In this document: in pieces, positions 24,396-24,602 of the stretch | How the letters are laid out: each line of letters begins with the position of its first letter | Numbering within the stretch: position 1 is the first letter of the stretch | Assembly: GCF_000026545.1 (NCBI RefSeq) | Contig: NC_011601.1 | DNA length: 64,000 bases | Direction: 5' to 3' (one strand) | Origin: Escherichia coli O127:H6 str. E2348/69 | Lineage (GTDB): Bacteria > Pseudomonadota > Gammaproteobacteria > Enterobacterales > Enterobacteriaceae | Position numbers and translations under genes: made by a program | Notes under the pieces: model-generated | Told to the model about the DNA's origin: nothing | The model's database searches: none | The model's input: the letters and a program-made list of their open reading frames with translations, nothing else

Positions 24396-24602
24396 TGTCT
24401 ATTCTCCATTGACGTTATGGCTGCACTGTAAATGAACATTTGATTCGAATAAGAGCTACAGATCACAAAAGGGCAAATGATCTATAAAATTACAAATGAC
24501 CAAAACCAGGTAAAAACTTGCCTCATGGCAGAGCTGTCGCCAAAATGACGCTATCTGTTGTGGGATTTTTCCATTCCGCACACAATCTTGAGGTAGGGAA
24601 AC

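Follow-up and report, generated by a model that had tools for sequence, protein, structure and literature searches.

A palindrome of probable chance origin within the conserved dalD-dalR control region of Escherichia coli O127:H6 E2348/69

Introduction

The D-arabitol genes of Escherichia coli O127:H6 str. E2348/69 diverge from a short spacer, with dalD read in one direction and the regulatory gene dalR in the other, and within this spacer lies the inverted repeat AGATCA-N12-TGATCT. Does this repeat constitute an operator, bound across both arms by DalR or by CRP, or is it an accident of a region that is conserved for other reasons? The comparisons described below point to the palindrome itself being, very probably, a lineage-specific coincidence, a warning that short inverted repeats in A+T-rich spacers are easily mistaken for operators. 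They also provide a testable map of the D-arabitol control region, comprising both promoters, a class II CRP-like site, and two candidate DalR operators. We infer the bound proteins, the transcription starts, and the direction of regulation at this spacer from sequence comparison. No published DalR operator was found in the accessible literature, which left out the primary Klebsiella papers (Heuel et al. 1998; Wu et al. 1985), and part of the map may already have been published.

The dal Locus and Its Intergenic Palindrome

The divergent arrangement of dalD and dalR around a 207-bp spacer (24396-24602), as described in the original prediction, was confirmed in the window, i.e., the whole 64-kb stretch of DNA that was analysed. 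On the minus strand, dalD comes first and is followed by xylB (dalK, xylulokinase), dalT (a transporter of the RbtT/DalT family), and a gene for a HAD-family hydrolase. The last of these (19519-20160), situated directly 3' of dalT on the same strand, finds its best match in the hexitol phosphatase HxpB (173 bits against a cutoff of 191) and could extend the dal operon to four genes. The features of the region are summarised in Table 1.

Table 1. Genes, palindrome arms, and predicted control elements of the dalD-dalR region (positions in the 64-kb window)
Feature	Position	Strand	Sequence or evidence	Remarks
dalD	23028-24395	(-)	NF043014, 748 bits vs cutoff 600	D-arabinitol 4-dehydrogenase
Predicted dalD -10	24425-24430	(-)	TACAGT	predicted start near 24418
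Predicted DalR operator O1	24433-24465		TGAACA-N21-AGATCA	about -15 to -47 of the predicted dalD promoter
CRP-like 22-mer	24449-24470	(-)	TTTTGTGATCTGTAGCTCTTAT	centre 24459.5, i.e., -41.5 from the predicted dalD start; class II position
Left arm of the palindrome	24460-24465		AGATCA	box h1, outer right box of predicted O1; overlaps the strong CRP-like half TCACA (24463-24467)
Predicted second operator O2	24470-24502		AGGGCA-N21-TGACCA here	contains the conserved AAATTACAAATGACCA
Right arm of the palindrome	24478-24483		TGATCT	box h3, weakly conserved inner position of predicted O2; consensus TGACCA
Predicted dalR promoter	24518-24546	(+)	TTGCCT-N17-CAAAAT	start near 24553
dalR	24603-25544	(+)	PF04198 sugar-binding domain and N-terminal HTH	313-aa SorC/DeoR-subfamily regulator; GTG start
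GAnCA-type box array	from 24433, 24452, 24460, 24470, 24478, 24497, 24507		TGAACA, AGAGCT, AGATCA (left arm), AGGGCA, TGATCT (right arm), TGACCA, degenerate here	in the order of the positions

The palindrome is present as predicted, its two arms enclosing the 12-bp spacer CAAAAGGGCAAA, and with the flanks included the arms are complementary at eight of nine positions (TAcAGATCA / TGATCTaTA). It does not, however, lie midway between the genes as had been stated, the dalD ATG being 76 bp and the dalR GTG 131 bp away from the centre of the dyad (24471.5).

Repeats of this kind are common in DNA of such composition. Dinucleotide shuffles of the dalD-dalR spacer contained on average 1.25 +/- 1.4 inverted repeats with 6-bp arms and 0-20 bp between them, 62% of the shuffles held at least one, and across the whole 64-kb window the corresponding density was 1.76 per 207 bp, such that the spacer carries no excess over the expectation from composition and length under dinucleotide shuffling. 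The far lower expectation of 0.05 per 64 kb is valid only for the exact pattern AGATCA-N12-TGATCT, which was picked post hoc. Drawn as a hairpin, the stem has a folding energy of -3.8 kcal/mol (z = -1.6), a value matched by 18 of 200 shuffles; a scan of the spacer revealed no terminator-like site, and the palindrome region gave no Rfam match.

Conservation of the Two Arms

Conservation of the dyad in orthologous loci had been set beforehand as one test of the palindrome. An alignment-based scan, taking one genome per species, gathered 46 orthologous dalR loci, nearly all of which possess a divergent dalD-dalR pair with a spacer of around 200-270 bp, and the conservation of the arms was read from an alignment of 37 enterobacterial spacers. 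All six pairs of the dyad are complementary in just one of these 37, that of E2348/69 itself; four of six is the commonest state (17 spacers) and two of six is found in 12. The comparison with the Klebsiella dal control region, which had likewise been proposed, also went against the palindrome: all Klebsiella and Raoultella carry TACCCA as the right arm (two of six pairs), and the palindrome is absent. The Klebsiella pneumoniae/K. aerogenes dal-rbt locus (L049) is clearly orthologous, with DalR 83% and DalD 84% identical, and its 206-bp spacer contains the same conserved blocks as that of E. coli, but with AGATCA...TACCCA in place of the dyad.

Elsewhere, the right arm reads TGACCA in most genera of the Enterobacterales, which is also the major E. 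coli allele, and TGCTCT in Citrobacter koseri, with TGATCT limited to the E2348/69 clade, Cedecea, and Pluralibacter. A reduced core, TCA-N12-TGA, is kept in many spacers outside Klebsiella. No compensatory changes between the arms were detected among the 37 spacers, the left-arm variants ACGTCA and ACATCA being unaccompanied by a matching change on the right.

The same asymmetry is seen within E. coli, in which 329 of 5426 complete genomes carry the locus and about 13 of those 329 have the dyad in its E2348/69 form. Five forms of the right arm occur (TGATCT, TGCTCT, TACTCT, TGCCCT, and TGACCA): O55:H7 genomes bear TGCTCT or TACTCT, a third group TGCCCT, and around 300 genomes TGACCA. No allele departs from the others in the left arm or its flanks. 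As the right arm varies and the left arm remains constant across E. coli, the dyad is lineage-specific. The hexamer at 24478-24483 is thus a polymorphism hot spot in this species (L002, L003, L051-L054), with alleles otherwise 92-100% identical over the surrounding 52 bp, and this variation offers natural alleles for testing which positions matter.

In the wider alignment, the right arm has low information content apart from the C at 24482, and it is among the least constrained positions of the conserved core. The TCA of the left arm (24463-24465) is invariant in all 37 Enterobacterales spacers within the invariant run ATCACAAAAG, a block shared by Vibrio and Psychromonas, and the arm sits inside the invariant block ATCACAAAAGAGCAAA. 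Near-invariant blocks in the spacers comprise ATCACAAAAGAGCAAA, AAATTACAAATGACCA, ACTGTA, CTTGCC, and CAGAATG. Positions outside these blocks are saturated with changes and have near-zero information content, and the footprint is therefore informative. The palindrome overlies a well-conserved control region.

Predicted Promoters and the CRP-like Site

The best-defined element next to dalD is its predicted -10. TAnAnT was found in all 47 spacers, including those of Vibrio and Psychromonas, at a fixed distance of 32 nt from TCAyA, as TACAGT in 24 spacers, TACATT in 10, TAGAGT in eight, and other variants in five. Such a pattern, with T1, A2, and T6 invariant and positions 3 and 5 variable, is characteristic of a -10 element. 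The sequence 17 bp upstream of it (CTTATT) does not resemble a -35 hexamer, nor is there an extended -10. On the dalR side, TTGCCW-N17-nAnAAT is kept in essentially all Enterobacterales spacers; the predicted dalR promoter scores 8/12, which is below the threshold of the promoter scan.

The sole match of that scan, ATCACA-N17-TAAAAT (24462-24490, plus strand), was set aside as a principal promoter: its -10 shows little conservation of the critical A2, and around 0.7 such matches would be expected by chance. It is possible that it serves as a minor second dalR promoter. A natural insertion bears on the same map. In Enterobacteriaceae bacterium UBA5654 (L031, 1600-2450), a yefM-yoeB type II toxin-antitoxin cassette (PF02604, PF06769) lies within the dalD-dalR spacer, having been inserted between O2 and the dalR -35, such that dalD retains the conserved block and dalR retains TTGCCT...GACAAT. 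This natural experiment is consistent with the two-promoter map.

The CRP-like site combines a perfect TGTGA half (TCACA on the plus strand) with a weak half, GCTCT. Its core matches the consensus at seven of 10 positions and its position is the same in 45 of the 47 spacers. The consensus search for CRP was uninformative alone, the window holding 196 sites that match equally well where 222 are expected, which is not above chance. The two arms of the palindrome, being 12 bp apart, cannot be two CRP half-sites, which have N6 between the pentamers. An FNR-like sequence, TTGAT-N4-ATAAG (24440-24453), was also considered and rejected, as it is present in this allele only.

In its predicted centre at -41.5, the lack of a -35, the perfect distal TGTGA, and the weak proximal half, the dalD arrangement resembles class II CRP promoters such as galP1. 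It differs from them in that its weak half, instead of drifting, is held constant from genus to genus, a pattern that points to some other constraint, and in that the dalD start is a predicted one. The recurrence of TCACA at the far end of the Vibrio palindrome described below, where CRP is not expected, implies that TCACA may be a contact of DalR alone. On balance, binding of CRP at 24449-24470 is an even call.

The GAnCA-Type Boxes and Two Candidate DalR Operators

The conserved core carries a series of GAnCA-type boxes (Table 1), which are probably targets of DalR. AWGANCA, enriched around 10-fold on one strand in almost every spacer, was considered as a single unifying motif and rejected in its strict form, being post hoc and having only two strict copies in E2348/69; for this reason, pairs of boxes separated by N21 at fixed offsets were relied on instead. 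Both the AWGANCA motif and the N21 rule were defined after the data had been viewed.

Two such pairs keep their positions. The O1 pair sits at -29 from the anchor ATCAyAA in nearly all taxa, conserved as TGAnCA-N21-wGATCA with the consensus TGATCA-N21-AGATCA; the E2348/69 copy has one mismatch to TGANCA-N21-TGNTCA and those of V. viridaestus and Psychromonas are perfect. The O2 pair, at +8 from the same anchor in nearly all taxa, has the Enterobacterales consensus AGAGCA-N21-TGACCA and is a perfect TGAACA-N21-TGTTCA in several Vibrio. In Enterobacterales, O2 is a direct and not an inverted pair, and in E2348/69 it shows three mismatches to the pattern, beyond the two-mismatch limit of the scan. 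An autorepression site would not usually lie upstream of the -35, as O2 does at dalR.

With at most one mismatch allowed, the 64-kb window holds 11 copies of TGANCA-N21-TGNTCA where 2.05 are expected, a total that no shuffle attained; given this over-representation, a single match means little without conservation. The spacers, moreover, are phylogenetically related, and the counts among them are therefore not independent. The matches other than O1 appear to be intragenic (e.g., 43059-43173).

Viewed against these boxes, the inverted look of the two arms comes solely from the self-complementary GATC core that each has in the E2348/69 lineage. In their consensus forms (AGATCA and TGACCA), they are better described as GAnCA direct repeats.

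A far more regular arrangement was found in Vibrio. Spacers of several species (L033-L041) contain a perfect 48-bp palindrome, TCACAAATGAACAAAAGACC-N8-GGTCTTTTGTTCATTTGTGA, made up of two 20-bp halves around an 8-bp centre, with TGAACA-N21-TGTTCA as its core and TCACA at both ends. Its left half is homologous to the E. coli block TCACAAAAGGGCAAATGATC, agreeing with the enterobacterial consensus at 17 of 20 positions, and the two occupy the same position relative to the dalD -10. As an operator candidate, the Vibrio palindrome far surpasses any element of the E. coli spacer. The notion that the enterobacterial region is a degenerate version of this 48-bp palindrome was tried and discarded, since its right half is direct rather than inverted. 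In the more distant Colwellia loci (L043, L045), the dal spacer architecture was not found. In Vibrio sp. dhg, a divergent regulator, named deoR in that study, represses atlA-xylB-atlT up to 100-fold (PMC9134653); this regulator is a putative counterpart of DalR.

DalR and the Operators of Its Relatives

DalR matches PF04198 at 3e-51 in addition to its HTH, and aligns over its full length with LsrR (4l5i, E = 1.6e-32), DeoR (8r7y), and SorC (2w48). DalR and Bacillus subtilis DeoR share the same HTH subclass and recognition helix (SRPVVQR vs SRPTVSR). The DalR helix, SRPVVQRL, keeps both arginines of the DeoR SRPTVSR as the invariant R37 and R42, with the equivalence to DeoR R34 and R39 resting on an inferred five-residue tag offset in 8r7y. 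From E. coli to Vibrio, the helix is unchanged at around 53% overall identity, and in Colwellia and Psychromonas it varies at one or two positions (SRPAVQRM, SRPSVQRM, and SRPAAQRM).

The closest known system is lsrR-lsrA, which likewise pairs a divergent operon with a SorC/DeoR-subfamily regulator and possesses two N21 elements. The K-12 lsr spacer has two LsrR boxes, each an exact copy of TGAACA-N21-TGTTCA (two found vs 0.03 expected), and the experimentally defined p-lsrR-box elements AACAAT and AAGATTTAA (PMC5137460) fall inside the first of them. The two systems differ in layout: each lsr promoter has a perfect inverted pair close by, the two pairs being about 170 bp apart, whereas the dal elements lie next to each other at a distance of one turn and are degenerate. 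The effectors differ as well, phospho-AI-2 for LsrR and a pentitol-derived signal for DalR, and binding is experimentally established for LsrR and predicted for DalR. The lsr spacer also resembles that of dal in containing a TGTGATCT-type half-site, which functions as a CRP site there.

The B. subtilis DeoR operator, ATTGAACAAAATTTCAATTACCAATTTACATATGTTCAA, has the form TGAACA-N24-TGTTCA. A tetramer occupies it as two half-operators, making base-specific contacts within TTGAACA, with R34 and R39 as base-contacting residues and inner elements that are thought to be held mainly by phosphate contacts (PMC11229326). At dra-nupC-pdp, this 39-bp operator spans -60 to -21 and overlaps the promoter (PMC11229326), as O1 would overlap the predicted dalD promoter. 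Outer hexamers of the TGAACA/TGTTCA type are common to both, and the inner TTACA of the DeoR operator recurs in dal O2 (24490-24494). The DeoR case departs from dal in its N24 rather than N21 spacing, in having a single operator and no CRP, and in its regulator gene being upstream in the same orientation.

The candidate DalR elements thus share the TGAACA-N21-TGTTCA grammar of the LsrR box and resemble the N24 operator of DeoR, and the N21 grammar may help to predict the operators of other regulators in the SorC/DeoR subfamily. The palindrome does not fit this grammar, with a spacing of N12 against N21-24 in the DeoR and LsrR operators and a centre-to-centre distance of 18 bp against around 10-11 and 27-30 bp.

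Weighing the Possible Explanations

Could the repeat nevertheless be a true dyad operator, with a DalR dimer or CRP lying across both arms? The sequence is certainly there, in the conserved core between two divergent promoters, and TCA-N12-TGA survives in many spacers outside Klebsiella. Yet full complementarity in one of 37 spacers, two of six pairs in 12 including that of K. pneumoniae, the lack of covariation, a right arm that is polymorphic within E. coli, a similar inverted repeat being expected by chance, and an 18-bp centre spacing unlike that of CRP, DeoR, or LsrR sites together make this very improbable. Formation of an RNA or DNA hairpin by the arms, as a terminator, attenuator, or cruciform, merits practically no credence: a 6-bp stem can be drawn, but the fold is weak, there is no terminator-like site, Rfam match, or covariation, and the palindrome lies upstream of both predicted transcription starts. 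GATC occurs in both arms of the E2348/69 palindrome, 18 bp apart, and the consensus O1 boxes are GATC-built. That occupancy by DalR or CRP competes with Dam methylation at these boxes, giving heritable ON/OFF use of D-arabitol of the pap/agn43 type in some lineages, is nonetheless a very long shot, and the dal spacer is an ordinary catabolic control region. The dyad is, with considerable confidence, not the functional unit.

The more serious competitors concern the division of the conserved core between CRP and DalR. With CRP alone, the TCACA block would be a class II site, the A-rich block a UP element or alpha-CTD surface, and DalR would bind elsewhere, for instance only at the palindromic AAATGATCATTT in the promoter spacer. 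The centre at -41.5 from a conserved -10, the missing -35, and the perfect half-site TGTGATCT all speak for such a site, and one-sided CRP sites of this sort exist in the lsr spacer and at galP1. The invariant G and C in AAGAGCAAATGACCA and TTACAAATGACCA are, however, not expected of a UP element, the perfect 48-bp palindrome of Vibrio indicates a specific oligomeric protein, and the box grammar is common to LsrR and DeoR operators, which leaves CRP alone an unlikely account. Conversely, all boxes, TCACA included, could be contacts of DalR with no CRP site, dalD being either weak or activated otherwise; SorC with its inducer is reported as an activator and is a possible model for activation of dalD by DalR. 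This is also doubtful, though it deserves somewhat more weight: TCACA stands at both ends of the Vibrio O2 palindrome, the weak half GCTCT is invariant and resembles a GAGC box, and the CRP core is not significant by sequence, but a promoter without a -35 at a fixed spacing to TGTGA (-41.5) is the classic class II arrangement, and the Klebsiella pentitol operons are catabolite-repressed.

A Working Model of the dal Control Region

We lean towards an explanation in which the dyad is a chance pairing of two boxes, within a CRP-dependent dalD promoter that is shut off by DalR at O1 and O2. The palindrome would have arisen by accidental pairing of two members of the GAnCA-type box series in the E2348/69 lineage. 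The dalDKT genes would be transcribed from the promoter with the conserved -10 TACAGT (24430 to 24425) and no -35, and such a promoter, lacking a -35, should be activator-dependent. The activator is most likely cAMP-CRP at TGTGATCT-N-GCTCT (24449-24470), centred at -41.5. DalR is envisaged as a repressor of the SorC/DeoR subfamily, probably a tetramer on DNA. When D-arabitol is absent, DalR on O1 would cover the CRP site and the promoter spacer, excluding both CRP and RNA polymerase; O2, which starts one helical turn beyond O1, probably adds cooperativity or autoregulation of dalR. Release of DalR in the presence of D-arabitol would then free the dalD promoter. The left arm would have two roles, as the distal of the two outer boxes of O1 and at the core of the CRP half-site, and the right arm would be a loose inner position of O2. 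Of the original proposal that the palindrome binds the SorC-type regulator or CRP, the left arm thus plausibly retains its part, as a predicted DalR box and a CRP-like half; the dyad as a unit does not.

Other Observations at the dal Loci

Two loci with Bacteroidota labels, from Chryseobacterium sp. 18061 (L030) and an uncultured Lacinutrix (L040), encode DalR proteins 77% and 63% identical, respectively, to that of E. coli, and their spacers are of the enterobacterial and Vibrio type. Contamination or mis-binning, not transfer, is the probable source of both. The tblastn match to DalD falls into several reading frames in C. koseri NCTC10786, Leclercia NCTC13032, and S. rubidaea NCTC12971 (L006, L034, and L038), reflecting either frameshifted pseudogenes or indel errors in the assemblies.

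Beside dalR, the ribitol genes of E2348/69 are decayed (25546-27841). The rbtR remnant, a LacI-family regulator, is truncated and frameshifted, rbtD is left as an SDR dehydrogenase without its N-terminus, and the FGGY kinase has a frameshift and an internal stop, leaving a 257-aa fragment. The pentitol island of this strain hence looks intact in its dal half and pseudogenised in its rbt half. At 19519-31223, the dal/rbt island is placed between yegS and the gat (galactitol) operon, the latter being apparently intact with an uninterrupted gatR of the DeoR/GlpR type. Ribitol-arabitol and galactitol genes were described as mutually exclusive in the older genetics of E. coli; E2348/69 carries dal/rbt and gat side by side.
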